Below, in pieces: positions 7,950-64,000 of a stretch of 64,000 bases of DNA. Below the pieces are notes generated by a model, which had not been told where the DNA came from, made no database searches, and worked only from the letters and a program-made list of their open reading frames with translations. The translations under genes and the position numbers were made by a program. Numbering within the stretch: position 1 is the first letter of the stretch; each line of letters opens with the position of its first letter. This stretch comes from Lobosporangium transversale. Lineage: Eukaryota. The stretch covers positions 496,001-560,000 of the forward strand of contig NW_019028995.1 in the NCBI RefSeq assembly GCF_002105155.1, written 5' to 3'.

Positions 7950-10900
7950 TCAGGTTTTCAGTCTAAAAATAGACAGAAATACAGAGTTAACATTAGCTAT
8001 TTTCTATTCGACTCGAGCCAGGTCGGGCCAGTTCAGTCCAACTCCAACTCCAAACTCCCTTCCCCCCTAAAAAAAAAAAAAAAAAACTCACCGTTTGGGA
8101 TTCAGTCGACAACCACGATGACTCTTCCTTCGATGACCGGGCTCTCCGCAAGAGACGCAAATCTCTGTGGTCTCCATGGAAGCTTTATCTGTAGGACTGT
8201 CAACTACGGCTTCTGGTACAGGATTCAATGCCCTGTATTAATAGAGACAAAGCATTTCTTTGATTAATTTTCGGTACCTTTATCACAAAGTCAAACGTTC
8301 AATGAAAGCGCACCGTTGCTCACTTGCCGTTTGGGATTTAGTTTGCATGCCTTGTTGCTCTTCCGTTGGTGTCCAAGCTCTCCACAGGAAATGCATTTCT
8401 CTACTGAGCTACCCTCGTTCAAGTTTTGACCCGTTGAGTGCTTGGCAGCGGAATCGGGTTCTTGACTTTGAAGCCTATTTTTTTTAAGAAAAAAAAAATG
8501 GCACTAACTTTTATTTCTCTGATATCATGGTTTCGATTGACAACGATCAATATATAACCTACCTCTTAGAATTTAACTTGCAGTCTTTATGACTTTTCCG
8601 TCTATGGCCGATCTCTCCGCAAGAAAAGCATTTCTCTTCGGAGCCACTAACCGAAGGTTCACTAGCAGACGACTCACTAGAGACGGAATTGTCAGTTTCA
8701 ACAACCTTAGTAGTCATGCTAGATTCTGAAAGTTGAGGTCTACAACATATGAACAAAACGACAGATGAGTTTTTCAGTCAACATCCTTCATGAACCCACA
8801 TATAGAATCGAATTGATATAAACTTGCCTCCTAGGATTAAATTTGCATGCTATATGACTTTTGCGTCTATGGCCTGTCTCTCCACATGTGGCACATTTTT
8901 CCGCAGTGTCATTGATAACAGAAGCTGTGGATGCAGAGCCGGTGGCCGAAGAATCATTCTCAACGCCTAAGGGTCTATGATGGCAGATTAATATATCAGT
9001 GAGATTTACATAAGTTTACTAATAGCTCCATTGACTTTCCCCCTGATAATACATTGTATATATATACGTATTAAGATACCTTTTATGGTTTAATTTGCAT
9101 GCTTTGTTGCTTTTGCGCCTGTGACCAATTTCTCCACATGACACGCAGGTCATAGTAGAAGTTTTGTTCGCTATAGCACTGTTTGCTGGTCCTACTGGCC
9201 CTACTGGCCTGTTGAGAGAAGTATAGCATTAAAGATTGGAAACCAATATCGTCTTTCGCCTTATATAGAAGAGAGAGCATTTTATAAGTACCGGCTGGGG
9301 TTATTTGGGCAATCAGCGTGAGATTTGCGTCGATGGCCAGGATTTCCACAGGACGCACATACTTTGGCGGGATTTGTGGTCGCTGTGTTATTTCTCACTG
9401 TTTCTACTCGTCTACAAGTGCGCATCAAATAATTCGTTAGATTTTGATTCGAGTATACATGCGCGGAACTAGAAGGATTCCAAGGTAAAACAAAATATTC
9501 ACATTTCAGCCTTGGAGTTCATGGGACAATTGCGATAGCTCTTCCGCCGGTGACCGACCTCCCCGCATGAAGAGCATGTTGCTGTAGATTGTTCAGGTAT
9601 AGGGTTTTCAGACTGTGAGAGCCTGACAGACGAAAATCACAGAGTATTAGGCACTTCAAATTTATCATTAAGAATACCTAAAGACATAAAAAAAAAAGAG
9701 AAGGGAAAGACTCACCTTTTAGTATTCATTGGACATGCTTTGTTGCTCTTCCGTCGGTGACCGACTAATCCACAGGAGACACATATTGCTGAGGAATCGA
9801 AGACTGTAGCGTCATCAGATTCTGAATTATTGCTGGTAGTAACAACATGAGTATTAGGAGAGGTCTGTGGACTCTCAGATCTATTTGAACTATGACAGCG
9901 TAAGGTATCATTAATATTGCTGCGAAAAATGCTATAGGCTCGAGCACTTAGAAAGCGAATATGAACAGGATAAACCCTTACATTCTTTTGTTCAATTTGC
10001 AGTCTTTATGGCTTTTGCGTTGGTGACCAGCTTCTCCACACGAGGCACATATGATTGCAGTTCCAGAAGGTCGGGTTTCTGGTGTAATAGTATTGTTGGC
10101 CAATTGTTCTGGTGTAAGGCTCTCAATGTCGTGAGGTTCTTTAGTAGTGGTAGCCTTTACATAAGATGGTCCTGTTTTTTTGCTACCATTCCCGAGAGTA
10201 AGTAAACATTAATAAAGTAAAATAAAATAAGATTGAGTGGCCCTGAATCTCGAGATACCGATCAAGTAATGGTCTTTAAGCATGCAAACAATACTTTTTA
10301 ATGGAATCTGCGGTATCTGCAGTATCTGTTTCAGCTTCGGTAGAATCATTTTCTAGTTGCTGTCGTCTGTGAGAGGTTGAGGGGTTGATAGTTGATAGCA
10401 AGCAATCCTAGTTAGAAGAATTTTGGTATAATGGGTCAATGGGCTAATGCATCGTCCATGGAAGTGCTTTCTAACCTTGCAATGTTTTGTGGGTTTTTGG
10501 GGCAATCCCGATGACTCATACGTCGATGGCCATTTTCACCGCAAGTAGCGCATTTGACATTTGTTAAGGCAGTTACAGGAGTGGATGCGGAATCAGAGTC
10601 AGGTGCTGTTGTAGAGGCAGGCTTGGTCTCGAGTTGTGATACAGACGATGGAGTAGCAGCAGAGTTTTGTACTTTTGCTTTCTTATCCACTGGATCATGA
10701 TTGGTGCCATTAGAAGGCAAAGTCTCGCTTGCCAAGTTGACGCGGTTGCGAGGACAGTCGGTGTGACTACTTCGTCGGTGGCCGGTTCCGCCGCAGGCCG
10801 CACATATTGGGGTAGACTTGGTATTGACCGAGGGATTTGGGACAATTTCGGTCGATTCGGGGGTCCTAATAGGAGAGGGAGAAGAAGATAGTGCGATATT

Positions 10901-14378: not shown

Positions 14379-15015
14379 GAGCTAAACGTACCTTTTCAAA
14401 ACTAAAGTCTGTATATAAATATCATAACTTGCCAACAATTACTCGGAAACAAAAAATCAAAAAAAAAAGAAAATAAAGTATAGCCCGTTCCATTTGTCGC
14501 GATCCCTTATATTTTTTGAATACTCTTAAATGTATTGGCAGCCAATTGACTCGCTTGTTATTGCAAGTGGTGTGACTGGTCATTAAAATTAATTTCAGTT
14601 TATTTTGTAGTCATAGGCGGGTCCGCCTCACCTAGAAACTACCGAGTATAAAAGCCAAAGAAACTTCCTTCTTAATAAAGTCTTCAGTTTTCCCCACATG
14701 TCTTATTCTTCATCCGCAGTTCATCTTGCCATTTATCTTTTTCCCCTTTTCACAACAAGCATTTGTCTTCCGGTAACTCAGTTTGTGAGCTCACCTATAA
14801 AGCTCCCATCTTTTGACATTCTATGGTGCTGTTTGTAGTCAAGGTTATTTGACTCTATTTTCTCTTGTTAATCTTGTTGACACCCTTTGTCCTGCCTTTT
14901 ACTGCTTGTGTCTATCTTCCTGTCCCTTAAGCGAAGATATACCTATTTTTTACAACAATACCACCAAACCAATTCATTATAGATTAAGACATGTGGGGTC
15001 TATATGTTGTCTAAA

Positions 15016-15150
15016 TAGTCCTCCCCATCAAAAAACATCATCTAGACCAAGCATAGAAATAAAGAGATTAGTCAAGAAAGCACTGTCAAGCTAATACTTA
15101 CAACTTTTTCAAGACGAAGGCCTTTCCCGACCTAGTCATGTTTGTAGTAG
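15016..15150 (-). ncRNA. Candidate Fanzor omegaRNA / element 3' end, copy 2
   Basis: The reverse complement of 15111-15150 matches 20419-20458 at 38/40 nt. A second hairpin and the terminal TTTTTT(G/A)ATGGG..GGACTA motif are also shared. Confidence 0.7.
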
Positions 15151-15199
15151 CTCATGAAAAATTTTAGACAGACAAGTAGTAACCAGGGAGCAGAAGTGA

Positions 15200-16075
15200 G
15201 AATAGGATGTGGATTCACACATCACATCCATGGGGCATTTATCCAAATTTGTATCAAAATAAAACTGCAAGTTTGTCTCGGGCACCACACCATGGGGCAT
15301 AGAGCTGTTAGTATGTCTGTATTATAAATTTTCATGTAACACGTGTACTGTGAAATATGCAACTGATCATATCCTATTGTTGTTGCCGGCTTGGTGTCTT
15401 TCCTCCCAATCTATCAGTGAGCATCGGTGCAACGCATATAAGGCACACAGGCTGTTGACGAGCCTACTTCTCACCTTCACCGTTTGACGCAGGTCAGGGT
15501 TGTGACGGTCTAGCGAACAAAACGTAAGGGCATTAACAATACCAGGATCGCATTAGACGGTAGTTGTGGTATTTGCAAATGAGCATCGCCCTGGCTCATG
15601 GAATATGAGTCCAACGTTTTCAAGAAGTTTGGGGCCCCTCTTCCAGCTTATGTTTGCGTAGTCTTCATCTATCAGGCCTTCACCGGCTGCCTTTAAAACA
15701 CGCCGTGTTAAGGAATCCTTGAGAAAGTTTCAATTCCTGGCTGAGATCTTCTTCATCTACGTTAGATTGCTGCTGTCTCTTCGTCTGGACTGTGTCATAG
15801 GCAAGTGGATTCAGAACAAGGCCACTGGTAATATCGTTCCTTTGAGTTTGAACCGAGTTATACCTTTGTCTTGTGCCTGTAGGGGTACCTTGTCTCGATA
15901 GCCATGAAACATGCGATCTCCTTCAATGTCACAAAGAGAGCCTGTATCTAGACTTCTTTTGTTCCCTGTACACATTCAAACACTGCAGTCTTGGAAGGAT
16001 TGTCGAGAGGATGTCAGTTAGGACGTGTTCAGACAGATACACATACCGAGGGGGGACGTAAGGAAGTCTGTTTTT
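15200..16075 (-). pseudogene. Decayed Fanzor C-terminal half (paralog of 18510-20410)
   Basis: Minus-strand fragments: DFLTS/PRYVYLSEHVLTDIL (cf. DFPTSAFSPRSLCLTEACLLDIL), SGLVLNPLAYDT (cf. NGLTLTLLAYDT), ISWKRGPKLLENV (cf. INWKQRSCLLENV), *CDPG (cf. GIDPG), CPRQTCSFIL (cf. CPRPHCDSIL). Contains stops, frameshifts and deletions. Confidence 0.8.
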
Positions 16076-16473
16076 TTTATTTCTTGTTGATTGTCATGGC
16101 GAAGGCTTGATTTGGTAAATGTAGATGATTGGAGAAGAGCTGTAAACAATACTCGAAATCCAAAAAGTTAAAACCTGTCGCTGAGAATCTTATTGTTTCG
16201 AGTTGTTCCAAATTCATCAGCCTTTTGTTTCGTTCTCTTTCATACACCTATAAATACGTCCTGCCTCCTTCTCTTTTTCCCTCTCTCTCTCTCTCATTTT
16301 ACAACGACATTGCTTTCGCGCTCTCACCCGTACTCTTACACCCTCATCCCCTCACAGATCATAACTTTTTGCTTTCTTAAAGGTAAACTATCTCTACTCT
16401 AACAACTTCAGCTTCAATCTTTAGCCGCTTAAACCAACATTGCTTGCACTGTTTTACACTATACTTTCTCTAG

Positions 16474-19400
16474 ATGGGTATTAAAGGACTCTATTCATAC
16501 CTTTCAAGGAGAGACCTGCCACCAAAGGAGATTGATGTACATGAGCTTGCTGCTGAACCCCATTCATCTTTTGAGCTGGATCTGCTTGGCACTTTCCACA
16601 GCGATATACATAATATCATCCTAAGGAGATTCAGCTGGCAGAGTTCTTTCACTGCCTGCGGCCATGCTATGGCTAGTATCATTCGAAAGATCTTTGGTCC
16701 TCTTGCCACAGTGACGATACACATTGATGGGCCTCGCTGCGAAGAAAAAACGCGTGCCTATAGGGACCGAGATGCTAAGCGTACAGCAGCGGATGCAAAA
16801 CTCGATACGCTCATAGCCAACATGGAAACCAAGTCCAATGAAGGCAAATGGGAATCTCGAAGCCATATGATTGCCATTAAAAAGAATCTTCGACAGCTCT
16901 TCACATTCAGTCATAACGAGAAGAGGGAGCTCGCGGCGCCATTCGGTCGATACAATAACTTTGTGATTTGCCATTGTAGAAATGAGGCTGATGTGTGTAT
17001 TGCCGCCAAATGTACACCAACCAGTATCGCTGTGTCTGGGGACTCTGACCTTCTCATCTATCCTTCTATAAAAAGAGTTCTTCGTCCAATCCCTCGTCGC
17101 CATCACATGTTTGCACTCTATGAGAAACAAGAGGTCCTGCAGGCCCTTGGGTTTTCAAGGAACAGTCAACTCCTGGTCTATGGCATTATATCCGATAACG
17201 ATTACACCCCAAATATCCCAACCTTTGGTCTTGCTACAAATGCTGAGATTATCTCCGCGCTCACTGACACTGATGCCGAAAAGTTGACGGTATCATATGT
17301 TCGTGAGGTCCATGCCCGTAGCCGTCGAACTCCTGCAGAAGGCCAGTTTGACCATTCAATTAATGTTTTCTTTGGTGGGATCCAAACCCAGGCCTCGCAG
17401 CAACCAACCGCTGAAAGATTCCTTCATTACCATGATAGAATGAGGACTGCGATATCTGCTAGGTACCAGAATAAAAATAATCAACCTCAACCCAGGTAAG
17501 CTCCTTCAAATGAACATTTTCCAAAGCATATACAAAAAAAAAAAAAAAAAAAAAAAGTCATCTAACCCTTGACATTGTTGTTCCTAATTAGATTCTATAT
17601 CCCTAAACGCGCAAAGCCGAATCGCTATCGGCCTGTTTTCCCTACCCAGAAAAAGGAACTTTCCCCTAAGAAATATGACCTGACCAACTGCAAACAACAC
17701 GACCGTCCCGTCAGCTCCAGCCGTCAAAGAAAGTCCCCCAAAAAAAAGGAAAAGGAAAAAAAAGAGGATGACAAAGAAGAGGAGGTTAAGGAGGAAAAGA
17801 AGAAAAAAAAGAAGAACAAAGGGAAGGCCAAGTATATCAGAAAGACTGATAAGACCAGGAAAGTGAAGGAGGCTACTGCCGAGGACCGACGGTTGAAGAG
17901 GGCCCACCCCACTGTTGCATTAACTCTGGGCACGTTAAAGACATGTGTAGTTGCCAAGCTGGACTCTACTTCCGATCCCAATCTCAATCCCGAGCAACTT
18001 GCTGCAACAATCCAAGGGCTCATTCAATCATTTATTAAAATGTTGAATGAGGCACGGATTCGAGCTTTCTGGGCCTGCGCCTTGTGGATCGATAACCTGC
18101 TTACCACTGGGCCATCCAATCCAGCTGATCTCCCACAACTCCTAGATGAAGTTCTTGATAGCAGGAACTTTATTTACGGCCTTGCTGCGTTGTTGTATCA
18201 CGGAGTGATGAGTCCATTATCTAGGTATAGCAGGGAAGTGAAGAAAAAAGGCGAAGGGAACGTAGCCAAGCCGTCCCAGCTCAAAGCATACGAAAACTTC
18301 TATGCAAAGGCAGGGCTTGGTCCTTTAAACCAGATCTATCCCGATTTGGTGATCAGCAGGTCGTCTCGGATGGTCATGGTCCCTGTTCAAGCAGCGCTAA
18401 GGTCTCACTATCGGAATGCGCAGGTAAATATAATATTATAATATTTTGAGGTTATCTTATAATATGTTTATAGAAATGTTCCTAATCATTTCTTCAATAT
18501 AATGTCTAGTTTGACATAGATATTCCAGGCGATGGAAGAAGTTCCATCCAATTCTTTTTTGAGCAAAATGCAACTGCCAAAAAATATCTGGATTTCCCTA
18601 CGTCTGCTTTCTCGCCTCGGTCTCTTTGCCTAACGGAAGCCTGTCTCCTGGATATATTATGGTCTAACCCAACAGTTCGAGAGGAAATAGCCCAATTGTT
18701 AGAACTAAACATGAGTACCAAGGGGGCTGCAGAGGACAAGATCCTTAACCACAAGGGGATATTGTTGCAGGAGCTGTTTTCCTTGAAAGGATACAAGGAC
18801 GTTGGACTGCAATCTGATGATGGTCCTAGAAGGAAACTACGGACATCGTTCTTTACAAACGGCCTTACCCTAACACTTCTTGCCTATGACACATCGAAGC
18901 AAAAAAGAGGTAGAGGTTCGCAAGCTGCCCAACCTTCGGATACTCAAAGATCTTAAGCGGTCCAGGCTTCTTCAAGTGCTCAGCAGGGATCCTCGTCTTC
19001 AGGCCATGGTGCAGGTGATGGTGGTGATGATGGAGACGACGACGGAAATGAAGATGACGATATCTTGCTGGGCATCAGCGATATTGACTTGCTGGAAGTT
19101 GATGAACCATTCTTAGATGGCGAAGAGGGAGAAGAAGCAGCTGAAGAAGGTACATCGAGCACAAATCCACTGTTCCCGGTGAGTCCCAGTCCCCGGCGTG
19201 AGATCAACTGGAAGCAGAGATCCTGTCTCCTCGAGAATGTAGAAGTTAAATATGACACCCAGGCAGCATGCCCTCCCCCCGAAAGTACCATTATCATTGG
19301 GATCGATCCAGGCGAGAGGTACTCGATGACAATTGCAAAGTTGGATCCAAGGAAACCTAACGAACGTGAGATCCTCCGGATTTCTAGAGCGTACCTTTAC

Positions 19401-20410
19401 AAACCATCCAAGAAGTTTCAGGGCGAGCTAGAGAGGCGAAAGCTTAGAAGAGGAATTACAGAGATTGAAAGCAATATTCCGTCATTCTCAAGGCCTACTT
19501 TAACACAGTATTTCGCTTATATGAGCTTGCCGCTAAATCAAGCTCCATCAAGTACTGGAGGTAGTTTCTCTGGTAGTGGAGTTGAGGCCAGTAGTAGCAG
19601 TGGATCTGGGACCAGTGACGACAATAGGGAGACTATATATAGGGCGCTTGTCGATTTCTATAATGACGGGTGGTTTGTTCGGAATAGCTGGGATATTAGA
19701 AAAGCACAGAACGGATGCGTTGATTATGTGATCAAGGCAATTCTGAAGCTTGCGGGCGGAAGCAATGGAAGAAGAAGAGATGCCAATACGAATGCGGTGA
19801 TCTGTATTGGACTAGGATCATTCAAGACAAACCGAGGACAAGTATCGAAGCATGGGATATTGATGAAGAAGCTTGTTGAAAAGGTAAAAAAAAAAAAAAA
19901 AAAAAAAAAAATTCCCTTGATCAATGACATTTAATTTTTGAGTCTTTTTTTAACGAGTATTAAATCTGGCTCGAACAGGCAAAATCTCTAGACTACCCCA
20001 TTGTAGGTTGTCATGAATACTATACATCTGCCAAGTGTCCACGGCCTCACTGTGACAGTATATTGGAGAATGTTCCTTTTCGATCCAAGTACTGTCGAAA
20101 TTGTAAAGCATACTTTGATCGAGATGCTGTTGGTGCTGAGAACATCGCAAGGGTCTGTGAGTCGCAGATAAGAGAGCAAAAACGACCTGCAAAATATATG
20201 CCGCCGGACGGAGGAACTCAAGGCCAAGCTTCTAGCGGTAGTGGCGGCGGTGGAGGTAGTGGTGGCAGTGGTGGCAGTGGTGGTAGTAGTAGCAGACCCA
20301 CAAAAAGAAAATTTTCAGATGAAGGAGGAGGAGTAGAGGGATCAAGACCACCGAAAGGACCTTTGCTGGGTCCAGGAGGAGGGGGAGAGACAAGCCGGCA
20401 ACAACAGTAG
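16474..20410 (+). CDS. XPG/FEN1-type PIN nuclease - Fanzor (TnpB-like RuvC + Zn finger) fusion. Exons 16474-17495, 17592-18423, 18510-19883, 19979-20410 (~1219 aa), one internal TAA at 18954-18956
   Basis: N-terminus: MGIKGL, ELDLLG, HIDG, EAD, SGDSD, DNDY. C-terminus: RuvC-I IIGIDPG, VICIGLG plus shifted Glu in HEYYTS, C-x4-C...CxxC finger, RuvC-III FDRDAVGAENI. All three GT-AG introns splice in frame (3660 nt total). Confidence 0.85.
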
Positions 20411-20418
20411 GACACAAT

Positions 20419-20578
20419 CTACTACAAACATGACTAGGTCCAGAAAGGCCTTCGTCTTAAAGTATTGGCTTGATAGTACTTTTTTTTCTTGGTTAATTTA
20501 TTTATTTATTTCTGTGTTCTAATACATTTCTTCTTTTTACAATAGATGGAATGTCTCGTTTTTTAATGGGACGGACTA
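20419..20578 (+). ncRNA. Candidate Fanzor omegaRNA scaffold and transposon right end, copy 1
   Basis: Starts 9 nt after the Fanzor stop. Hairpins GACTAGGTC-CAGAAA-GGCCTTCGTC and AAGTATT-N8-AGTACTT are conserved with 15016-15150. Similarity ends at ...GGACTA(T), followed by TA. Confidence 0.7.
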
Positions 20579-21152
20579 TATATATTGTATAGATTACTAT
20601 TTCTGATCACATATTGTAATAAAGAAGAGTATGACTTTCAAAGCATCTTGGCATACAGAGAGCATTTTGACTAGCTGTGGCTGTGAAGAGCATTTGCGTT
20701 AGTATTTACGTAGTCTTTCCTCGTCTCTTGCCACAAATTCCTGACTCAAAGCATACAACTATTAAGCTTAGGTTCAAACCCACTAGTCAACTGGCCTCAA
20801 AGGATACGGAAGACGTGCTCATCATTCGAATTTTGTAGCCTTGGAATTATAAGAGGATCGAATCTCTTTTTCTCAGAAGGTGCATCCGATGTTTTTTCTA
20901 AAAGGGAAAAACCAATGGGATTACTTCCTTGTAACTCATTCACGTCCGCTACCTCTCTGATATTCATCATAATTAGCCAAGCCCACAGCGGGCGTAACTA
21001 TCCATCAGGTCAAGTACAAACGGATAAATAAATAAATAATAAAAAAAAGAAAAGCTGTACACACTCGCAACACTGTCAGTCAATACTCCTGGAGAGAGGA
21101 GCTGCGGCCAGGACCGTCGTTTTCATCTGTATTTGTCGCATATTCTTTTCAA

Positions 21153-23489
21153 ATGTGGGTGCGCAAATCAAGAGGGGAGACCCTATTAGGGGATGAAGAA
21201 CGCGAAGAACTGATGATGACTCGGAGAGGGTCGCCTTCACCCGCCCCAGAGGACTGTACACCACTTCATGCTTCGTTGGCCATGGACGAAAAAGACGCTA
21301 CTACTACTACTTTACCCATGTCAACCAAGGACAGCTGGAATTTTTTATTATTAGTGGTATTATGTAAAGGATAACATAGTCAGGTCTTTTCTCTCTCTTG
21401 TTATGATTATCCTGTTCTAGCATATAATGAGCTACCATCGCATCAAGTAAGACAGCTAAAGTCATCGGTGTTTATTGCTGCTATTGCTATTATTTCGAGT
21501 AGATCTTTTACAGGGTGTACCAGTAGGATTGGCCTTTGGCAGCGTCCCATTCTTGCTCAAGGCTAAGATTAGTTACTCGCAGATTGGGGTTTTTTCCCTC
21601 GCACATTACCCTTACAGCATGAAATTCCTCTGGTCTCCGATTGTCGACGCAGTTTATAGCAAGGAGCTAGGCCGGCGCAAATCATGGATTGTTCCTATTC
21701 AATTGTTGACAGGGTTTATGTTTTTTTGGTTGGGGACCAACATTGATGAGTGGCTAGAACAGGATCAAATTGCAATAGGCACACTTACCGCAGTGTTCTT
21801 TGTTCTGATATTTTTCTCCGCCACTCAGGATATTGCTGTAGATGGATGGGCATTAACGTTATTATCCAAGAACAATGTGTCATATGCGTCGACCGCTCAA
21901 ACGATTGGTCTTAATTCGGGCTACTTTTTGTCCTTCACTGTTTTTCTGGCATTCAATTCTCCCGAATTCAGTAACAAGTATTTTCGATCGGAACCTCAAG
22001 ATGTTGGCTTGGTACCTCTTGGCGGATATCTCAAATTCTGGTCTATGATGTATTTTACGATCACGCTATGGCTTATCTTTTTAAAAAAGGAGGAGCGTCC
22101 CCAGACAGATCAGAATGAATTTAGTATCAAATCGGTGTACAAGGTTATCCTCAGGATTATTCAACTACCCCATATGAAATCATATATGATTATTCTACTA
22201 ACCGCAAAGATTGGGTTCATCGCAAATGGAGCGGTAACAGCCTTAAAATTACTGGAAAGGGGATTTGGCAAAGAGGATTTGGCATTGGCCGTGCTTATCG
22301 ACTTTCCATTCCAAATTATCTTTGGTTACTACGCTGTGAGGTGGAGTTCAGGATCACGGCCACTTAGACCGGTATAGGTTTTTTGTTTGTAGATTAATAA
22401 CTTGAGAAACCCAATGTGTCTCCTAAGCAAGAGGCTCTTGCTGATCGTATTTGATCCGATGGCGTTCATTTTTAGTGGCTATGGGCATACTGCGCACACT
22501 TGGTCTGTTGTGTTATCGCCATGTTGATTGTTTCTTCTTTTCCTGAGGATGGGATTGTCACACCTGCTTATTTTTACATTGTCCTTGCCACAACTGTAAC
22601 AACGTCCTTTACAAGGTAAAAAGATGGAGATGTTTTAGACAGCAAACTTAGCAGGCAATTGAGCACATACTTACAATGCTACTTTGCTCTTCATGCATTA
22701 CTTACTAAAAACTATTTCTTGTGTTGATTTTGAAAGCACGGTGGCATTTGTAAGCATGGGGGCATTTATGACAGTCATCGCAGATCCTGTGATCGGGGGA
22801 ACCTATATGACGGTAAGAAGCAGCGACAATATTTTATCTTCTGATTATTGTCTGTTGTAGTAGTATCTCATTATATAAATAATCCACAATCTTAAATCAT
22901 GTATTTACTCTTTCGCCATATTGCTACCTTTGTCATTATTATAAATGTTATTGCAATATACTTGAAAATTTGATCATAAAAGCTTCTTAACACTCTAAGC
23001 AATTTCGGTGGAACTTGGCCTCGGTTCTTTGTTCTTGAGGCTGTTGACTACTTCACGGTATCAAGATGCTCTGTTATGAACGCTGAAGGCGAAGGTAAAG
23101 TGTTAGTCAAAAAGCCATTTCCGTCTTATCAATATAACATTTATTAATGTCTGAAAGTATTCACTCCCATCTTTATGTGTTTTGAGCAGAATTCTCTTGT
23201 GCTTCTGAACCTGGTAAAGGGCTGTGTCAGCAGCTTGGAGGCAATTGCCTGATCGAGCAAGATGGCTATTACTTCGTGAGCACGGTCTGCGTAATGACTG
23301 GCGCTATACTACTTGTGCTTTACATTGCACCAACAATTCGTTATTTGGAATGTAAGTAGGAAACATTTTTTAACATATCAATTACTCTTTTTAATATTCT
23401 TAAAAAGAACAAATCTAACTTCCTTTTTCTGTTTTGATACTCTAGCCTTGAATCCTAAACTTTGGAAGTTACCAAAAGAAGAAAACTAG
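21153..23489 (+). CDS. Acetyl-CoA transporter 1 (SLC33A1/ACATN, MFS), multi-exon
   Basis: LLQGVPVGLAFGSVPFLL, YPYSMKFLWSPIVDAVY, GRRKSWIVP, ATQDIAVDGWALTLL, DPVIGGTYMT|LLNTLSNFGGTWP motifs. Confidence 0.92.
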
Positions 23490-30355: not shown

Positions 30356-31280
30356 ATGGTCTTTAAATTTATATCTACTCTGTTATTGAGGGGACCATCA
30401 TGGGAATTGGGAAGCCAATCCCTTGCTTATTTCTTTAATGGATAGGTTAGAAGGGCTAAGGGTGAATAAAGATGGATGGGAAGAAGGAGAGAAAGAGCAG
30501 AGAGATGGGAGTCAAGAGGCAAGAAAGGGAGGGTTGAAGAGCCAAATTTTCTCACTTTTCCTTTTATATTGGACTTTATTCGAATGTCAAATTTGATTGA
30601 CGGTGTACGCTCTTTCCCATCAAGCTTGCCTCAATGGCAAGAGTACAAACAAAAAAAGCATCTTGATGTTTACAACATATTATGTGTTGCATTTGTCTAT
30701 TCCTGGTGTAACCAGCGGAAATGTGTAGTATATAAATAAAAACTTTTGGTGGCACAGCCATTTTTTATTTTTATTTTTATTTTCTTTGCTGTGGCATACC
30801 ATTCGCGCACACAAGCACGCGTCATTTTTACTTTTCTCTCCTCTACAACCATACAGACGTCTTTTCGGTGTCCTCGATTGGTTCTTTGCGGTTTCTGGCA
30901 CAATGCTTTGTGGATGAATTTCCATATTTGACTAACAATTTGGTCAACTTTATTTTTTTTTTGGTATGAGCAGATGCATTTTGAAGCTTATTTTCAGTTC
31001 GGATAGTGCAAAGCCTATTGCACTTTTAATTTTCACACGGGTCCTGATATTAATTTTTTTTTTTTCTTTTTCGATTATCAAATATACCTACCACCCTTTT
31101 GTAATAAAGTTTTATTCCATAGTAATATATATATATATTTACTTTATCTGCGCAAAAAAAAAGTTTAGACACAACACTTCGCTAAATCTCAATGACTTTG
31201 TGCTTTTCGTATGCTCGTCCAGGACAACGTTCCACAAGATTGCAGTAATGATAATTTCTGCATAATAAAAAATGAGTGTA

Positions 31281-33481
31281 CAGATTTTAGTATTTCAGGA
31301 CTAGTATGACATACTAGTATTAGTACTAGAGTTGAGTACTAAAGTTGGAAAAATTTATTGATTTTAGTACTCCTGCGTACTAATGTTGGAGAATTTAGTA
31401 CTTCAGTGCGTGGCTGATTTTCTTGTCACTCTTTAGATGCATGTCACGGGAAAGATGTCTAGCAAACATACAAACCCCTTTCCACAATTGCAAAGTGTTC
31501 ACAAAACCTACCTGTTGTCGAATTCTTCACACATAAACAAATTGTATATACAAACTAACTGAGGACGGTATTAACCGAACTATTTATACTTGCTATAATG
31601 ATCAGAACCAAGTAAACGTCCGAACAGACCTATCCAAAAACGAGGGAGCTTGTCGCTCTCCTTCAAATATAAATGGTTTACTTAACAAAAATCTTATAAT
31701 TGAGAAGGACCAACAAAAAAGAGCAACAAGCTGCAAATAATACAAAAAACCACTTTTCTCTCCTGGTCTAAAATTAGAAATTAAGTTTGCCGCACAAAAC
31801 TAATGTAAAAAAATGGACTTACAAGACTTCGACAGCTAGATTATCGCAAATAGTAAAATAGGCTATTGCTGGATGTATATCGATTATAGAAAAAATGGAT
31901 GAGGTATCGGGGGATATAAGGCTTTGGTACTTACAAAGCAAGGATTTTTTGATCTTAATCCTTGAAGTATTTATGGAATTATTGCCGTTTAAAGGTTATA
32001 AAATGGTCGAAATGAGGTTCAATGTCAAGCCAAAGTGTCTGCCTTTCCCTCAAAAATACATCAAAGCGCTTTTCCACATAGTATATGATAGATACGTTAC
32101 ATAGCTTTGTATAGAGTCTTAGTTTTCCAAAATCCAAGCATTTTTCATAGACTTTACTTATAGCTGAAGAGAGAAATATATCATTTTTTAGGGATTTTTC
32201 GGTTTTATTCATTAAGGAACTTCGGATTCCTTTTATAAGAACACGTATGGTCCCTTAGTACATTATATTATGCACTACATATTCTTACTTTTTGGAAAGT
32301 TTGGTCAGTTTTGGAAATATTCTGATGGTTCTGCAATATTTTGTCTAAAAGCTAGACAATTTCCGTAGAAACCTTGACTTCAAGATGCCCTAGTTCTCAA
32401 ACTTTTGAATATAAACATTTTCAATTTTTACCCAAAAATACAATTTCCTGTTTTGAAAGATATATTTTCGGCTGCTTTATCGACTCTAGAAGTTTCAACA
32501 CGTTTGGGGCCGAAATGAGGGACTTTACTATAGAGTATCTGGTTCTATGGATCCTGAGAACGCGAATATGCGTATATGGAGCACTCAGGCACTTTGGGAG
32601 ATGAACCCCGTAAATGCATATTAGTATTATTTCCATCCCCGCCCCGAGCGCCCATTTTTTTTTTTGAGAGCACATAGAAGTGATACTAGACATTCATAAA
32701 CAAAGATGCAAGTGATACTAACACAAGAGTTGACATTCATGCAAGTGATACTAACCTAAAACTTACCCGCACAAACCCCATGGAAAGTGATACTAAGATC
32801 TTCTTTCCATGATACTAAAATGTGGCTCGCACAAATCCAATGCAAAATGAGGTTGAATATTTTATTGTCCTCTTTGAAAAGAGCAGAACTGAGGCGCCAC
32901 ATGTTGATGCCAGCCACGGAAGCTCTGAAGAGGATTCAATTGAGAGCCACGGAAGCTCTAAAGAAGATCCAAAGGTGGATTGTATTAAGCAGCCACAGAA
33001 AGCACAGCAAAACTATCCATTCAGTGTTCTCACCGACGTCGTTACCAATAAGGGAAGGTTGCCAACATGTGAGGGCTGCAATAGTCAGCTGGAGAGGCAA
33101 GCTAAAAGAATTGTAGTCAAGGTCCCAAGTAACATCAAGAAAGGGTGGTTTATTACAAGGTCCTACCACTTTCTTCAGACTTGCCTCACTAAGCTGCCTC
33201 AAGAGCAGTACTATGTGGCCATGCAGCAACTGGGAGTGCGGGCAACACGATCACAGCATCTGCAAAGAGTGGAACTATTGGAGAATAATAGTATTGCATA
33301 AAACAAGTAGTAGTATCACTACATATGATTTGTGCGGGCGTGTTTTTAGTATCAATGTATCTTTAATGTGAGTGCTTAGAATCAGTGCATGCTTGATTGA
33401 TTGTTTGTGGAAAAATGGCATTTTTGTTATTTTGGTACGCAGTACGAGTATGTGATACTGGTACTGAAATACTAAAATCAA
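31281..33481. mobile_element. TA-flanked TIR DNA element (~2.2 kb), degenerate, carrying a PARP-type Zn-finger ORF
   Basis: Left GATTTTAGTATTTCAGGACTAGTATGACATACTAGTA (31283) vs reverse complement of right end GATTTTAGTATTTCAGTACCAGTATCACATACTCGTA (to 33479); TA at 31279-80 and 33482-83. Confidence 0.7.
32822..33301 (+). CDS. ORF with PARP-type zinc-finger-like motif inside the TIR element
   Basis: KGRLPTCEGCNSQLE...RIVVK...SYHFLQTC (C-x2-C...H-x4-C); internal duplicated SHGSS(E/K)ED unit. Start uncertain. Confidence 0.5.
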   Translation: MARTNPMQNEVEYFIVLFEKSRTEAPHVDASHGSSEEDSIESHGSSKEDPKVDCIKQPQKAQQNYPFSVLTDVVTNKGRLPTCEGCNSQLERQAKRIVVKVPSNIKKGWFITRSYHFLQTCLTKLPQEQYYVAMQQLGVRATRSQHLQRVELLENNSIA

Positions 33482-33578
33482 TACGATCATAAAAAATAGA
33501 TGTCCACAATAACTTGAGTACAATAACCATTTTCATTTATTTTTTAATCTTTTTAATATGAAATCTTAGGCCTTTTAT

Positions 33579-57533: not shown

Positions 57534-58412
57534 TTTTTTTTTTTTTTCATTAGCTGCTGGATGAAATGAGAAAAGAGAAGAAAAACCCTGCGCCACCAAA
57601 TTAGTTTATCCCTTCGTCCGTCACAAGGGCAAATTTGCCATTATAAATGGGTTTAAAATCCAGCAATCCATGGGCATTGTCTTGAAATTTTATTTTGATG
57701 TCGAAATAAATGACCGAAAACTAAATTGTCATGGAGCTATCCTGGCTTCTTTATTTGTGCAAATAAAAAACTCATGAAGACTTTCGCATGACCTTAGCGT
57801 CCGCTTGGGGGCTCATTGTATCGTTTATTTATTGACTGATGTAATATAACAGTGATAATATTCGCCGCCGTAGTCTCGACTTGAAAGGAGTGCAATCTGA
57901 GTTGATTCATTCTACCACACCATAGAGCTTGACTAACTTGATCTTTTCCTGTACAGCCCGGCAAGACTTGATTTGTCACATCGTTTGCTTGCTCGTCTTC
58001 TTGCGTTCCCTTGATATATCTGGGTTGGTAAGCACTGCTAATAGAGTTTGTTGGGCCTGTTGAAACCAGAGGGAGCCACAGCAACATATCATACCCAAGG
58101 TGATACAAATATCTCTGTTGGAGTGAGTGGTGAACTGTGTGTTCAGATGTAGTGGACATAAACGGCGAAAGAATGCATCGAAAGGATGTGAGCGGTTATG
58201 AGAGCAAGGAAGAAGGGGTTGGTATGCCTGTTCAAGTCCTTGGCAAGAGAGCATGAGTAGCAGTTGTGATCAATGGTATAGTTTCTAGACCCTACCTTCC
58301 AGTACAGCATTGCATTATTGTTGTTTTCAGACCTGGCACCAATCATGCGAGGTATTTCTTTTTCTGAGGGTTCCTTGTGTTAAACGGCCAGACAGAAAGC
58401 TTAGAAGAGATA

Positions 58413-60689
58413 GAGTCCTCGCCAAAAAGTCGTCGACTAATATATTTTTAAAATACTCAATTTGAATTAAAAACCGGAAAAACAGAGATTTACGTACAAA
58501 GACTTCCCTCATCCATATAATTTTTTGACTGAATTGGAAACCGTTGTTTTTTTATGAATCTGAAACTGACCAACGAAGCAGACCTTCATTACCCTCATTC
58601 ACATTCACTCATTCTCCAAGAAATAGTCAAATGTCTTTCCCTATTGATACGATAGTCACCCCTCATATAATGATCTGAGTGATATGTATAATGATCTAAG
58701 TGATACCGATCTAACGTTTCTAGGAACACGCACAACTCCACCCCGAAGATGTCGACAATCGCCCTCCAAATTCAATGTCACCTCCACTAGATCTCCCACA
58801 CAATATCATTGGAATACCCCACCTAAGAACAGATCCAAGGGATCTCCTTCAAAAGAGCAGCTTCCCGATGCTGCTGATCCAAATCCATTCTTGTCAAATG
58901 GACAAGCTGTAGAGCTTCAGCAGGACATTGGTGAATTATCCCGTAATAAGGCGACCATTATACATAACGAATACGTTATGATGGCTCGGACATTCAAGGC
59001 TATTACCGAGGGGCCATTAGAAGTTTGACAGTGGTTTATGCAGACGCCAGACAGAGCGAACAACTTGGCAATTTTAATGGGTGTAGGGAGAGATGCATGT
59101 TTGACAGCAATTAAATTTGCTACCACAGGTGTCCTCGAGTTCAAAGACCGCGGTAAAGCTAGACATGAGAGAACCAGACGTGGAAGAACTGGACGCCCAA
59201 AAAAAGAAATTGATCAGGATGTAACCTCAAAAATCATGGCTGTCATAGTCAAGTGCGGAGCCCCTAATTCGGCCTCTATGGTTGCCAACCAACTAAAGGA
59301 TGACTTTGGGATCGATAGATTAGCAAGGTCAATCACTCGTGATCTTCGCAAAATGGGTTTATATTGGGGTAAAGGAATCCGACAACATTGCTTGCATGAC
59401 TCCAAGAAAAATGTCGCGTTCCGAACAACATACCTCAAGCGTCGCCTCAGTAATCTAAAACTTGTGGACGGCAATTGGGTTCCTAAAATGCCAGAAGTTT
59501 TTTTAGACGAGTCTTATTGTCACATCGATCATGCTGCAGCAAGACGTTGGGTGAAAAGTAGTGGTGGTGTCGTAAACGATGCGGGAAGAAAGCCAATAAT
59601 AGTTATCTTTGCGGCATTCGTTGTGTATTACGATGAACTCAACAAAAAAGTTGAGGGCAAATTCGTGAAGGATAGTGTATATATCTGGCCATCCAAAGGG
59701 CCAAAGCCTCAGTCAAAGAAGGGCCAAGAACGGGAGGCAGAGTTGTGGAACGATGTGCCCGAAGAGATCAAGAGTGCAGGAGTTGTAGCAACAGGTCACG
59801 ACTATCATGGGAATTTCAACGCCAATTTATTTGATAGTATTTTTAAGCGACTTTGTGAGAACCTCAATGAGATGGGACTGGGGCCTTGCCAAATCCATCT
59901 TGATGGTGCTTCATATCATTTCCATAAGAAAAACAAAGTACCAACCAAGAGCGACACTGTGGCAACTATCAAAGAGTGGCTCACCAACAAGGGTATTGCT
60001 ATTCCAACCTAGGAAAATGGAAAAGCGGCGAATAAAGACGATCTTATGGAGTTGATCAAAGCCCTTCCTGACGAGTCGTATTTCTCTGTCAGTAAAATCG
60101 CCCAAGAGAATGGTGGCCATGAAATTCTCAAGACTCCACCATATCACTGCGAACTTCAGCCTATGGAGAAAATTCGGGCCGTCGTTAAAAACATTATTGC
60201 GTCGAGAGCAAGGACGACAATGACAGCCCTTTTGCTGAAGAAAAGGCTTCTCAGCTTGTTTTCTTAGATTCCGGATAGAATATTTTATTCTGTATGGAAA
60301 AAGTCTGTGAAAATTGGTATGAAATACTATAACGAGGAAGACGTGTCCAAGGAATGTTGGATGAGGCGGACGAGAGGCATTACCAAGAGATCAATGATGA
60401 ACAGGAGACAATTGAGGACATTAGCGAGGAGATTAGACTCGACAGCAGTGAATGGGACCTAGAACTCGATAGAGTAGTAAACCAAGAGCAAGCTGGGGCT
60501 GTAATAATGGAATCTGAGATCGAGGACCTTGCACCAGATACTGGAAACATGTTTGGTTTAGTAGAGGATAGTTCTCGTAAAAATTAAAATTTTGAGTTTG
60601 TACGTTTTTTTTCGTCTAAAAACGGAGGGATTTTATTCAATTTAAAAATGTGAAAAATATTTTAGTCGACGACTTTTTGACGAGGACTT
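58413..60689 (+). mobile_element. IS630/Tc1/mariner DNA transposon with ~37-bp TIRs and TA target-site duplication
   Basis: Left TA|GAGTCCTCGCCAAAAAGTCGTCGACTAATATATTTTT; right (revcomp) TA|AAGTCCTCGTCAAAAAGTCGTCGACTAAAATATTTTT. Confidence 0.9.
58684..60587 (+). pseudogene. DDE transposase (long-spacer DD~87E), inactivated
   Basis: GRPKK/HTH region, VFLDESY, IHLDGASYH, TPPYHCELQPME; in-frame stops at 59026, 60010 and 60265. Confidence 0.88.
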
Positions 60690-61860
60690 TACAGACACAA
60701 CGGTGAAAAAAATGAATGTGAGCAAACAGTTGCTGTGTTTATTTGTTGTCTGCACATGCCTTCTTTCATCGCGGGCTTTGTTCCGAAAATATTTGGCAAA
60801 TCTTTTTCCTTTTTTGTTCGTCAACCACTGTGTGCACGAATAACTTTTGTTTCTGTACATGCATAAAGCAGAAGAAATGAACAAACTTTATTTTGGCGAT
60901 CACTCCATAATCAAAAATACTCCTAGGAGAGGATCAAACGCGTCGGTATTAATCTCGCTTCTGCTCTCCCTCCTTCCACAAGGCGCTGCACAATATCACC
61001 ATTAACAGGGCGTCGTCTAGTAAGGAAAGGTACTTAGATAGTTCTTACTACAAGCAATAAGCGCATGCAACTACATCACCCCTATCTCCACCATTGATGC
61101 CGGAACCTGAGAGCCAACGAATATCTCTGCTTTAACGCAATAGTACTGGAGCTGTTGGGGCAAAGAGCGACATCTAAACCCATTCTATGATAAAAAGACT
61201 TTTTTTTTCTTTAGTTGTTACCTTTGACAAGGATGTAATCACCTGTTTCAAAACCAGTTCCTACACACCGAGTCAAATCTGTCAACGTATTTACTACCCT
61301 TGTTTAACACTATAATATTTTTTTTATTCATTAAATTCCTCACAAAGCAAAGGCCAATGCAAAAAGAAACTGAAAAAAAATTGTATAACAAAGGATCGAC
61401 ATCAACAGTGTATGCTGTATATAGAGATGATTTTTTCGGTATCTCAATGCTATTGTTTCCAATCTGCCGTTCATGCGAGAGCTTGTATTTATTTGTCGAT
61501 CTCTGCTATTGACTTGGACAAAACCCCAAGCCAAACAAAGGAACTGAATAAAGATTGATATGGCCTGTGAAGCAAAGGATCGATATCAAACCTACATGAG
61601 ACAATGATAAAATTCATCATCAATCTAGGATATAAAAAGGAATCATTGTCTTCCTCCTTTCCCGCTCGCTCACTCCAAAGTCCCACTGCCACTTGTTCCT
61701 GTATCTTTTCCTCAATATTCTTTATCTATTCATTTTGGATCTTTAAACCATAAAAAAGCTCATCCTTTTATACCTTTGTCGCTCTTTTCTTTTTCTTTTT
61801 CATTTCTTTTCATCGCCACCATTTTTCCTTTTTTCTTTCTCCTTCGCTTAGATATTGACC

Positions 61861-64000
61861 ATGGGGCTGAAGTCCTTCTTCAAACTGGTTGCGGCTCGCG
61901 GGGTTTTACCTTCGGAAACTGACGTGGGCACTTTCTTGGCGGCAAATCCTGACCATTCTGTTCATTTAGATCTCCTCGGTACGTTCTATTACGACATCCT
62001 CCGCAGAGTCGTCCATGCAAAGATGAAAAACGAAACCATCATTGATGTAGGAAGGTCCCTGGCACTCGAGATAAAGGATCTTTTCACAACGGACAACCTG
62101 ACTATACATGTTGATGGGGAACCTTGTACTGAGAAAGAAAAAGCAAGGACAGAACGGCAAGCCATAAGACAAAAAAATATGGACGCTTTGGAGAACAATA
62201 TGAGCACCTTCGAGAGAAATTCTCGGAGTGGGGTATGGACTCGTCCTCAAGTCATGAGGCGCATCCAGAAGGGTCTTCGAGAAGTCCACACCCTGAGCGT
62301 CCAGGACAAGGATCAGCTGGCAACAGGCCTTAGTTCTGTCTTCGATGTCTGTCTGTGTGCATATGAAGCGGACCCATGCATAGGGTGCCATGATGAGGAG
62401 AATGATAGGATCGTGATATCCCAAGACTCTGATTTTTTTGCGTACGAACGAGTCTGCTTCCTAGTGCGACCCCTTCCACACCGTAGACGGAAGTTTGGGG
62501 TTTACGACGTAGACAACGTTATCCAAGCACTAAGACTGCCAACACACGCGCATCTGGTGTTATTCTGTGCCATCGCAGGCAATGACTACTCAAGGAACCT
62601 CGAGACGTTAGGCCCGGTTAATAATCTTCGATTAGTTCGAAAGGTTGCGTGGAACAAGACCTACAATAAAATACTTCAAGATTACCTCGGGGAAGCTAAT
62701 AAGGTGTTGGGAAGGAACGTAGCCTCTGAGGAAGGCCGTTTCAGTGTAGCTCTCCGCATTTTTACTTCCGGCCATCAAACGTCGGCCCAAGCGTTACCAT
62801 CGAACAATGAGTTCGATAACTTCAAGCAGCGTCTACTCAATGGAAAGGATCTTCGCCATAGAATGGCTCAGCAAAGGCGAGCGCAGCGCCGCAGAACGTA
62901 AGAAAGCTCAAGCTATAGTTTTGGCCTTGAAACCATACGTCCCCAATACTAATCGTTAGTCCCTTTCTTGGATAATGTAGAGACACACCATCATTCTATA
63001 TAGCGAAAGGGTCACATAGGAACCAGTTCCGGCCCATCTTTTCTGACAAGGCGAGCATATTGAATGGGCGCACAGTTGATATCAGTAACTGCCGTCAGCA
63101 CGATAGGCCGGGCCTTAAGCATCCACCACGTCGGAAAAAGGCAAAAAAGAAGCAACAGAAAAAACAAAAGCGGAAGCATAAAGGCAAGAAGCCTCACAGG
63201 GCTAAAAAAGAAGGTGCACCAATTAGGAACTTGAAGGATGCTACGAAGGATGATCACAGCTACAGCAGTAAGTACCCTATCAAGGCCTTAACAATTGGGT
63301 CCCTTAAGGCCTCCATGGCAAGGAAAGGCGAACTGGACGCAGATGAAAGGGATAGTATTGTAAGCCAGACCCGAGGGGCAGTTGTTGTCCTCAACCGACT
63401 ACGCCGCTATGCATACTGGGCGATTGCCTTGGACATTGAGAGGATTATGCGGTTACCAGGGGCAGCAAGGTCGAGGAAAAAGGCACTGGACGAGGCCTTG
63501 GATAGCAATGACTACTCCTTCCGTCTCGCCACCCTTCTTTTAAGTGGTCAAGGTGGCCCCAATTCAGCTTACGCGAGGACAAAAAAACAAGGAAAGGCGT
63601 AGAAACGCCCCATTACCTCCTCGCTTATGAACATTTCAAGGCCATCACTGAACTTTCCCCAATAAAGGAAATAGACATCACATTGGGGGACGTGCAAGGC
63701 TTTGATCCCAAAAAGATCTCATTTCCAAGAGCGTCAGAGCTACTAATGGGCCAAGTACAGATATCATTAAGGCAGCACTACAGGAACGCAATGGTATAGC
63801 TTGTGTAGGGTATTTTCATGTATATTCTGCAATCAAATGCTCTTTATTCAGACTCTTTTTTTTTTTTTTTTTTTTTTTTCTAGTTTAATGTCGAGAAAAC
63901 AAACGAAGATATGAGCGACATTGAGTTTTTTTTGCGGGAGAACAAAAAAGTGAAAAAATACTCAGACTTTCCTACGTCCTCCTGGTCACCCAGGTATGTG
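61861..64000 (+). CDS. Second PIN-Fanzor family copy, 5' part (exons 61861-62897, 62981-63793, 63884->end); frameshift near 63590; runs off the window
   Basis: MGLKSF, HLDLLG, HVDG, EAD, SQDSD, GNDY. Exons 2 and 3 are homologous to the 16474 copy (FYI..N(Q/R)(F/Y)RP, LR(Q/S)HYRNA|F, KKY(S/L)DFPTS), with the same intron positions and phases. Confidence 0.85.

Follow-up and report, generated by a model that had tools for sequence, protein, structure and literature searches.

The window analysed here, a 64,000-nucleotide stretch of the Lobosporangium transversale genome, contains an element of about 6.1 kb (14481-20578; Table 1) that is multi-copy, TA-flanked and carries no transposase of its own. 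Upstream of the block of interest, which lies close to the right end of this element, is a gene (copy A) of four coding exons separated by GT..AG introns, with 1219 codons in total, and as judged from its sequence it is a spliced Fanzor1 gene of the Mortierellaceae type. The catalytic motifs reported for Fanzors, namely DPG, an E just before the zinc finger and RD (PMC10711439, PMC13565253), were all found as RuvC-I DPG, Ealt, C4 zinc finger and RuvC-III RD (GIDPG at position 882, HEYYTS at 1088, CxxC-type halves at 1096 and 1115, DRD at 1123). The TDG motif of the WED domain reads TNG at 734 in copy A and TDG in the relative P0019. Pfam family PF07282 matched the Fanzor part with an E value of 1.2e-6, and a family profile of 49 members compared with solved structures gave SpuFz1 as the best match (E 1.7e-11) and a mimivirus TnpB-like protein at 1.1e-7. 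Foldseek likewise returned SpuFz1 on top, using an AlphaFold model of low confidence (pLDDT 46), and single-sequence searches of solved structures gave weak matches at best.

Table 1. Window coordinates of the features of the Fanzor element, with the basis of each assignment.
Feature	Position	Strand	Basis
Left end: TA (14479-14480) plus short terminal inverted repeat, 14/16 against the reverse complement of 20565-20580	14479..14494	+	sequence, counted by eye
Copy B, putative exon 2; ends TT where other copies have TA; flank is fixed element DNA	15014..15041	−
Copy B, putative intron, 60 nt: GTAAGT donor, CTAAT branch-like word, TAG acceptor	15042..15101	−	predicted
Copy B, putative exon 1: leader, stem-loop 1, A-rich linker	15102..15150	−	sequence match to copy A
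Copy B, decayed Fanzor remnant with stops and frameshifts; RuvC-I region 15472-15654, 28% protein identity to copy A	15372..15805	−	ORF end 21/22 against copy A
Coding exon 1: XPG/FEN1-like PIN nuclease domain, acidic motifs present	16474..17495	+	profile matches
Coding exons 2-4	17592..18423, 18510..19883, 19979..20410	+	Fanzor1 with TNG, DPG, Ealt, C4 zinc finger and RD motifs
In-frame TAA, codon 767	18954..18956	+	near-identical annotated relatives are open across it
Likely omegaRNA exon 1 (the reported block): C/A-rich leader, stem-loop 1 (20432-20456; 3 bp, U/UC bulge, 5 bp), linker	20419..20461	+
Probable spliceosomal intron, 84 nt, GT..AG, CTAAT 27 nt before its end, pyrimidine tract; contains the previously proposed second stem	20462..20545	+	X7 joint
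Likely omegaRNA exon 2: predicted stem 2 with right terminal repeat (end 20578) and TA duplication 20579-20580	20546..20580	+
Predicted guide in flanking host DNA	20581..20595	+	by analogy; flanks differ between copies (also L002 versus L003)

The first coding exon, which matched ERCC5 (E 5e-4) and XPG_I clusters (score 0.95), has its PIN domain in the same reading frame as the Fanzor part once the predicted splice is made. The nearest named protein is from L. transversale (91%; cluster of 9 on 8 contigs), a Mortierella alpina relative shows 39% identity, and 483 relatives were found at E values up to 0.001. Among 15 representatives of at least 750 aa, 13 carry an XPG/FEN1-like domain before the Fanzor part; three long proteins from the first relative search are without it, and their annotations begin later. 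Where names were retrieved for the PIN-Fanzor representatives, they fall into five genera of the Mortierellaceae, and the N-terminal XPG/FEN1-like nuclease is, on the basis of these profile matches, a family-wide trait. Viral contigs scanned for Fanzor relatives yielded none, and a match in a prokaryote genome (L006) covered 24 residues only, was taken as spurious and was excluded from all counts. From its sequence, copy A itself is probably inactive, having an in-frame stop and having lost a canonical splice donor (see below). Two further PIN-related stretches were observed in the window: a second, distant PIN-Fanzor relative at 61855-64000, which is 31% identical to copy A and runs off the window end, and a weak PIN-domain match on the minus strand at 1114-1236 (34% over 41 aa, E 0.005), which by its sequence may be a further remnant or a host gene of the XPG family.

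The limits of the element are marked by terminal repeats and by the contigs of public sequencing runs, whose depth values were used only to separate repeat from single-copy DNA and do not represent copy numbers. Between about 14480 and 20580, contig depth is that of a repeat; outside, it is at the single-copy level. At the left end, 9 and 10 contigs with unlike flanks exit the window in runs X1 and X2, respectively; at the right end, single-copy contigs begin at 20555, and contigs of run X7 exit at 20581, again with unlike flanks. The element ends at 20578, as the original prediction had placed it. By its sequence, the TA at 14479-14480 is likely the target-site duplication, for which TATA instead of TA would also be possible. 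The segment 14480-14557 exceeds the remainder of the element several-fold in depth in each of the four runs, X7 among them; hairpins are predicted on its minus strand, and it may be common to an abundant non-autonomous family. At one locus (14542 and 14995), single-copy by DNA depth and of high depth in X7, an end of the copy-A/B type is joined to this left-end segment. The left end was also considered as a third copy of stem-loop 1 and rejected because it does not match this structure.

Other repeats in the window include a broken IS630/Tc1-mariner-like transposase at 58411-60691 (NF033545, E 9e-5; stop at 60010-60012), framed by 61-nt inverted repeats of 84% identity. Its ends have only AGTCC after TA-N in common with those of the Fanzor element, for which it is a candidate transposase source as far as the sequence goes. 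Inverted repeats of 48 nt (83%), 2.1 kb apart, frame a stretch at 31272-33490, which is possibly a decayed DNA transposon; its two inner ORFs gave no convincing Pfam match. At 8085-10055, seven spaced repeats of 81 nt look, when the minus strand is inspected visually, like CCHC zinc-knuckle exons belonging to a single gene rich in introns.

The block had been singled out as a candidate omegaRNA because it is nearly invariant between two copies, A and B. Recomputation confirmed that 20419-20458 and the reverse complement of 15111-15150 agree at 38/40 positions, the runner-up among ungapped 40-mer matches in the whole window reaching 25/40, and that both substitutions fall into the loop of the predicted hairpin. 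Past the block, identity drops, runs on to GGACTAT and then ends, as had been described. A further statement, that neighbouring coding DNA is alike at the protein level only, needs correction: around the stop codon, the two ORF ends are identical at 21 of 22 nt and one 15-mer is exact, and the inner part of remnant B shows 28% protein identity to copy A (E 5e-5). The identity between the copies is thus partly recent shared descent, evident from the ORF ends and from the 77% identity of the adjoining stretch, and this would be compatible with the block being a 3' UTR or DNA signal, such as a splicing or stability element or a transposase-binding repeat, beside an ordinary 3' UTR intron. That no match at the block was returned by an Rfam search over 14800-20800 (two chance-level matches elsewhere) is also in line with such a signal. 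However, the block is better conserved than the stretch that follows it (38/40 versus 43/56 aligned bases, p = 0.02), which argues for selection in addition to shared descent; it is absent from the left end, and it sits in the interval from the stop codon to the right end, where the omegaRNAs of Fanzors sit.

Copy B turned out to be something other than the second of two independent insertions with different guides. A high-depth contig piece covering 14946-15407 contains the block of copy B, its end and its flank at a depth of 193, compared to about 10 for single-copy flank, and repeat depth continues to about 14480. Therefore, the flank of copy B is neither host DNA nor a variable guide. Contigs of deletion derivatives, in which part of B is joined to part of A, were also found. 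Copy B is a fixed passenger within the element, probably stemming from an old nested insertion. Its stop-to-block spacing exceeds that of copy A by about 220 nt, and the extra stretch (15151-15371, minus strand) contains the branch-plus-acceptor word TACTAACAG, by which copy B may have a further intron upstream of the scaffold.

The region directly behind the block is probably an intron. A contig of run X7 joins 20461 to 20546, skipping a stretch that starts with GT and ends with AG, and this joint is absent from runs X1, X3 and X4. The stretch is thus skipped in the one probable RNA run and in none of the three probable DNA runs, where the joint is represented by a single contig, X7 is RNA by a tool's guess and comes from a different sample than the DNA runs, and two of the latter share one sample. 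Copy A is missing 10 nt, among them the GT of the canonical donor; other genomic copies (X1, X3) contain these 10 nt after 20459, giving GTAAGT. Because the six extra letters at the X7 joint equal the linker of these donor-bearing copies, the joint represents such a copy spliced at GTAAGT. Unspliced pieces also occur in X7, and the contigs give no measure of the spliced share; no spliced joint of copy B was among the X7 contigs, one of which spans its intron in unspliced form, and this is uninformative as to splicing of B. All eight introns considered here have GT and AG, with a CTRAY word that precedes the AG by 27-41 nt, and seven of them start with GTAAGT; these donor, branch and acceptor words agree with the fungal intron consensus (PMC5832005).

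Because X7 derives from another sample and is classified as RNA by a guess, its joint might instead reflect an intron-less DNA subfamily present in that sample, the intron-like stretches being tolerated insertions; a relative without this intron does exist in DNA (L001, see below). We regard this as very improbable, as the splicing words occur in all eight introns and X7 shows the marks of spliced RNA elsewhere. Its pieces end at the predicted coding-exon edges 17493, 18423 and 19977, and it skips a GT..AG stretch (20877 to 20975) in a neighbouring host transcript upstream of an acetyl-CoA transporter ORF at 21475 (PF13000), which is likely a host intron. Reading the stretch behind the block as an intron changes the anatomy proposed originally: of the contiguous scaffold of 160 nt with a conserved second stem, 84 bases belong to the intron. 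The second stem itself is indeed predicted in both copies, but it overlaps the 5' end of the intron and has no counterpart in the relatives L004 and L001.

Relatives were obtained from a scan of metagenomes, in which 5 loci (L001-L005) were confirmed out of 120 pattern matches, four of the five coming from one metagenome and L002 and L003 being near-identical. A covariance model built from copies A and B alone gave three matches in the 21,966 bases of these loci, one each in L002, L003 and L004, all located just past the Fanzor stop and leading into GTAAGT, and did not find L001 and L005. With L001 recognised by eye, the block follows the Fanzor stop in 4 of the 5 loci. In L002-L004, it is followed by a predicted intron 1 (95-106 nt), a short exon that begins with ATGG and measures 6-12 nt, a putative intron 2 (GTAAGT..AG, 81-96 nt) for which an AAG acceptor has to be assumed, and a last exon of 7 nt ending with CTATA, after which the sequences of L002 and L003 diverge. 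L001, as aligned by eye, lacks intron 1: in its DNA, ATGG follows the hairpin and linker without interruption, and a donor comes next, where the contig ends. Copies A and B of the window contain intron 1 and have a hairpin in place of intron 2. Therefore, each of the two introns is absent in some natural copy with the exons retained. Of four lineages, three share the position of the splice signals, and the remaining one (L001) has no intron there in its DNA; between L002/L003 and L004, the introns are 75-80% alike and the exons 73%. In L005, a Fanzor relative of 63%, no hairpin, donor or end motif was recognisable in the 590 bases after the stop (2387-2975); this locus is either truncated or belongs to a subfamily with another scaffold.

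The comparison of these copies also bears on whether the omegaRNA might be the unspliced region of 140-270 nt, splicing serving only the 3' UTR of the mRNA or destroying the guide RNA. Such a reading would accommodate the unspliced X7 contigs, a predicted 9-bp stem in the intron of copy A, the 43 of 56 aligned intron bases common to A and B, the span of 75 to 150 nt reported for Fanzor1 omegaRNAs (PMC11423790), and the bacterial IStrons, in which self-splicing competes with the omegaRNA. However, L001 lacks intron 1 in its DNA and nevertheless keeps both sides, the introns vary in length from 60 to 106 nt, and the intron stem is absent from L004 and L001. Folding the unspliced forms gave no common structure and lost the terminal stem. 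We consider it unlikely that the unspliced region is the omegaRNA.

The spliced models span 70-86 nt from the stop, with two hairpins and a short linker. Aligning exon 1 automatically put L001 and L004 in the wrong register; the register used for stem-loop 1 was set by hand and eye. Over six copies representing four distinct stems, 42 of 48 cells pair, with two-sided changes at 4 of the 8 positions and two broken pairs each in L001 and L004. In this manually set register, stem-loop 1 thus covaries. These two-sided changes preserve an RNA stem, which weighs further against a mere 3' UTR or DNA signal; L005, without the block, would fit such a signal, which we judge to be quite improbable overall. 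RNAalifold recovered only the upper stem from the spliced set. In copy A and L004, pairing between the exon 2 AUG and the element end has a probability of 0.87-0.96 in the spliced form versus 0.01-0.04 in the unspliced form; in the spliced models of L002 and L003 the probability of the terminal stem is 0.15, and in that of B nil. The complete arrangement of stem-loop 1, linker and a stem 2 into which the terminal repeat and duplication are built is thus predicted in spliced A and L004, weak in L002 and L003, and absent from B and from every unspliced model. When compared to shuffled sequences, only the spliced model of A folds better, with a z-score of -2.3, those of the other four having 0.1 to 0.9. 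An unspliced fold suggested that the 3' end might form a pseudoknot with stem-loop 1; this was discarded, as the bases required are among those that covary in the stem.

The start of the guide follows from stem 2. Since the TA at 20579-20580 is predicted to pair in this stem, as reported for Fanzor1s, whose scaffolds take in the target-site duplication (PMC10711439, PMC13565253), the guide would start at 20581, and not at 20579 as had been proposed; a guide length of 14-15 nt is given in PMC10432273. No near-match to the putative guide of A (queried from 20579) or B was found in the window beyond the background at three mismatches.

Taken together, we interpret the block as the conserved first hairpin behind the stop of the Fanzor1 gene that a multi-copy transposon carries and, with a probability of roughly three in four, as the first exon of an omegaRNA, the scaffold of which would by prediction be functional only once one or two introns have been removed. 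The original call of an omegaRNA is thus likely right, as indicated by the Fanzor1 gene, the position after its stop and the covarying stem-loop 1, while the proposed anatomy was wrong. We propose that a Pol II transcript would run through the ORF and the 3' non-coding part into the flank, and that splicing would join the A-rich linker to the short exon starting with AUG, which would pair with the transposon end and the TA duplication to form stem 2. Fanzor would bind stem-loop 1, the linker and the base of stem 2, after which the RNA would be trimmed, RNA processing of the TnpB type being on record (PMC10530073), and about 15 nt of flank from 20581 would serve as the guide. The complex would then cut TA-containing empty sites, favouring re-copying of the element; as a guess, the fused XPG/FEN1-like domain might process the 5' ends of the break and aid repair by recombination. 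Removal of intron 1 is likely obligatory by its position in the sequence because it separates the linker from stem 2, and intron 2 of the relatives may be optional, by analogy, because its place is the distal portion of stem 2, a portion that SpuFz1 can do without. Extended to the Mortierellaceae Fanzors in general, this would mean that the host spliceosome assembles the scaffold from two or three exons, one of only 6 nt, thereby gating the supply of guides, and that a fusion of FEN1/XPG-like and RuvC nucleases cuts and resects the empty site; we offer this wider proposal tentatively, at slightly less than even odds.

OmegaRNAs as such are a known class of RNA, and introns in the coding regions of Fanzors are known as well (PMC10530073); what would be new is an intron-split scaffold made by splicing. 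In the literature searched, we found no description of an intron inside a Fanzor omegaRNA or of a PIN-Fanzor fusion, although supplements or Repbase may list such elements, and no paper treating Fanzor together with XPG. Neither the split scaffold nor the fusion appears in the available parts of PMC10432273, PMC10530073, PMC10711439, PMC11423790, PMC13565253, PMC10691335, PMC12923547 and PMC3627910. If our interpretation is correct, a spliceosome-dependent scaffold would imply that Fanzor guide RNAs are cut from messenger-type transcripts of Pol II, and the host would gain a splicing control point over a selfish nuclease. Splicing may also account for the conserved 3' regions of some Fanzor families looking longer than those of TnpB (PMC10530073). 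OmegaRNAs of the PIN-Fanzor family would then be mis-predicted from DNA and might fail in non-splicing hosts, and the predicted spliced cores of 45-65 nt plus leader would be small enough to be useful for compact editors.

The closest known system is SpuFz1 of the Spu-1 elements of Spizellomyces punctatus, whose scaffold of 75 nt consists of two stems and a protein-bound linker of 6 nt, the distal part of stem 2 being dispensable (PMC10432273), and whose omegaRNA has its final U-A pair on the terminal TA (PMC11423790, Table S3). As described in these sources, it resembles the system of the window in placing the RNA behind the stop codon and ahead of the right terminal repeat, and, by prediction, the spliced models in having two stems, a short linker and a stem 2 closed on the terminal TA; Spu-1 is also multi-copy, uses a variable flank as guide and has no transposase of its own. 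However, the SpuFz1 scaffold is contiguous in DNA, whereas the one predicted here is split by one or two introns, and SpuFz1 has 638 aa, compared to about 1220 aa with an N-terminal XPG/FEN1-like domain in our case. Stem-loop 1 contains a bulge here and shows no clear sequence match to that of SpuFz1. PpFz1 of Parasitella parasitica, another fungal Fanzor1, is similar to the spliced L002 and L003 models in its very short scaffold with a stem 2 of 4 bp; it differs in the contiguous scaffold and an FRI insertion, with no PIN domain reported (PMC11423790), and gave a weak fold match here. Its omegaRNA as published, which was delimited by expressing it in yeast, contains a perfect donor-like word, CAG GTAAG, in the second stem-loop (PMC11423790, Table S3).

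IStrons, which combine a group I intron with TnpB, likewise have splicing and omegaRNA formation on the same transposon-end transcript, but there a self-splicing ribozyme acts and splicing excludes the omegaRNA (PMC13565253), whereas splicing of the spliceosomal introns in the scaffold proposed here would create it. Fungal U3 snoRNAs provide a precedent for a structured non-coding RNA with one or two GT-AG introns of about 90 nt that are present or absent among relatives; U3 is a host housekeeping RNA and not the guide of a mobile element, and its introns were not found in the early-branching fungi surveyed in the available part of that study (PMC5832005). Finally, mariner-associated Fanzor1 elements such as PUl-4 share with the element of the window the Fanzor-only content, the terminal inverted repeats and the TA duplications; the accessible part of their description mentions neither a PIN fusion nor a spliced RNA (PMC3627910), and the partner transposase of the element described here is only a candidate.
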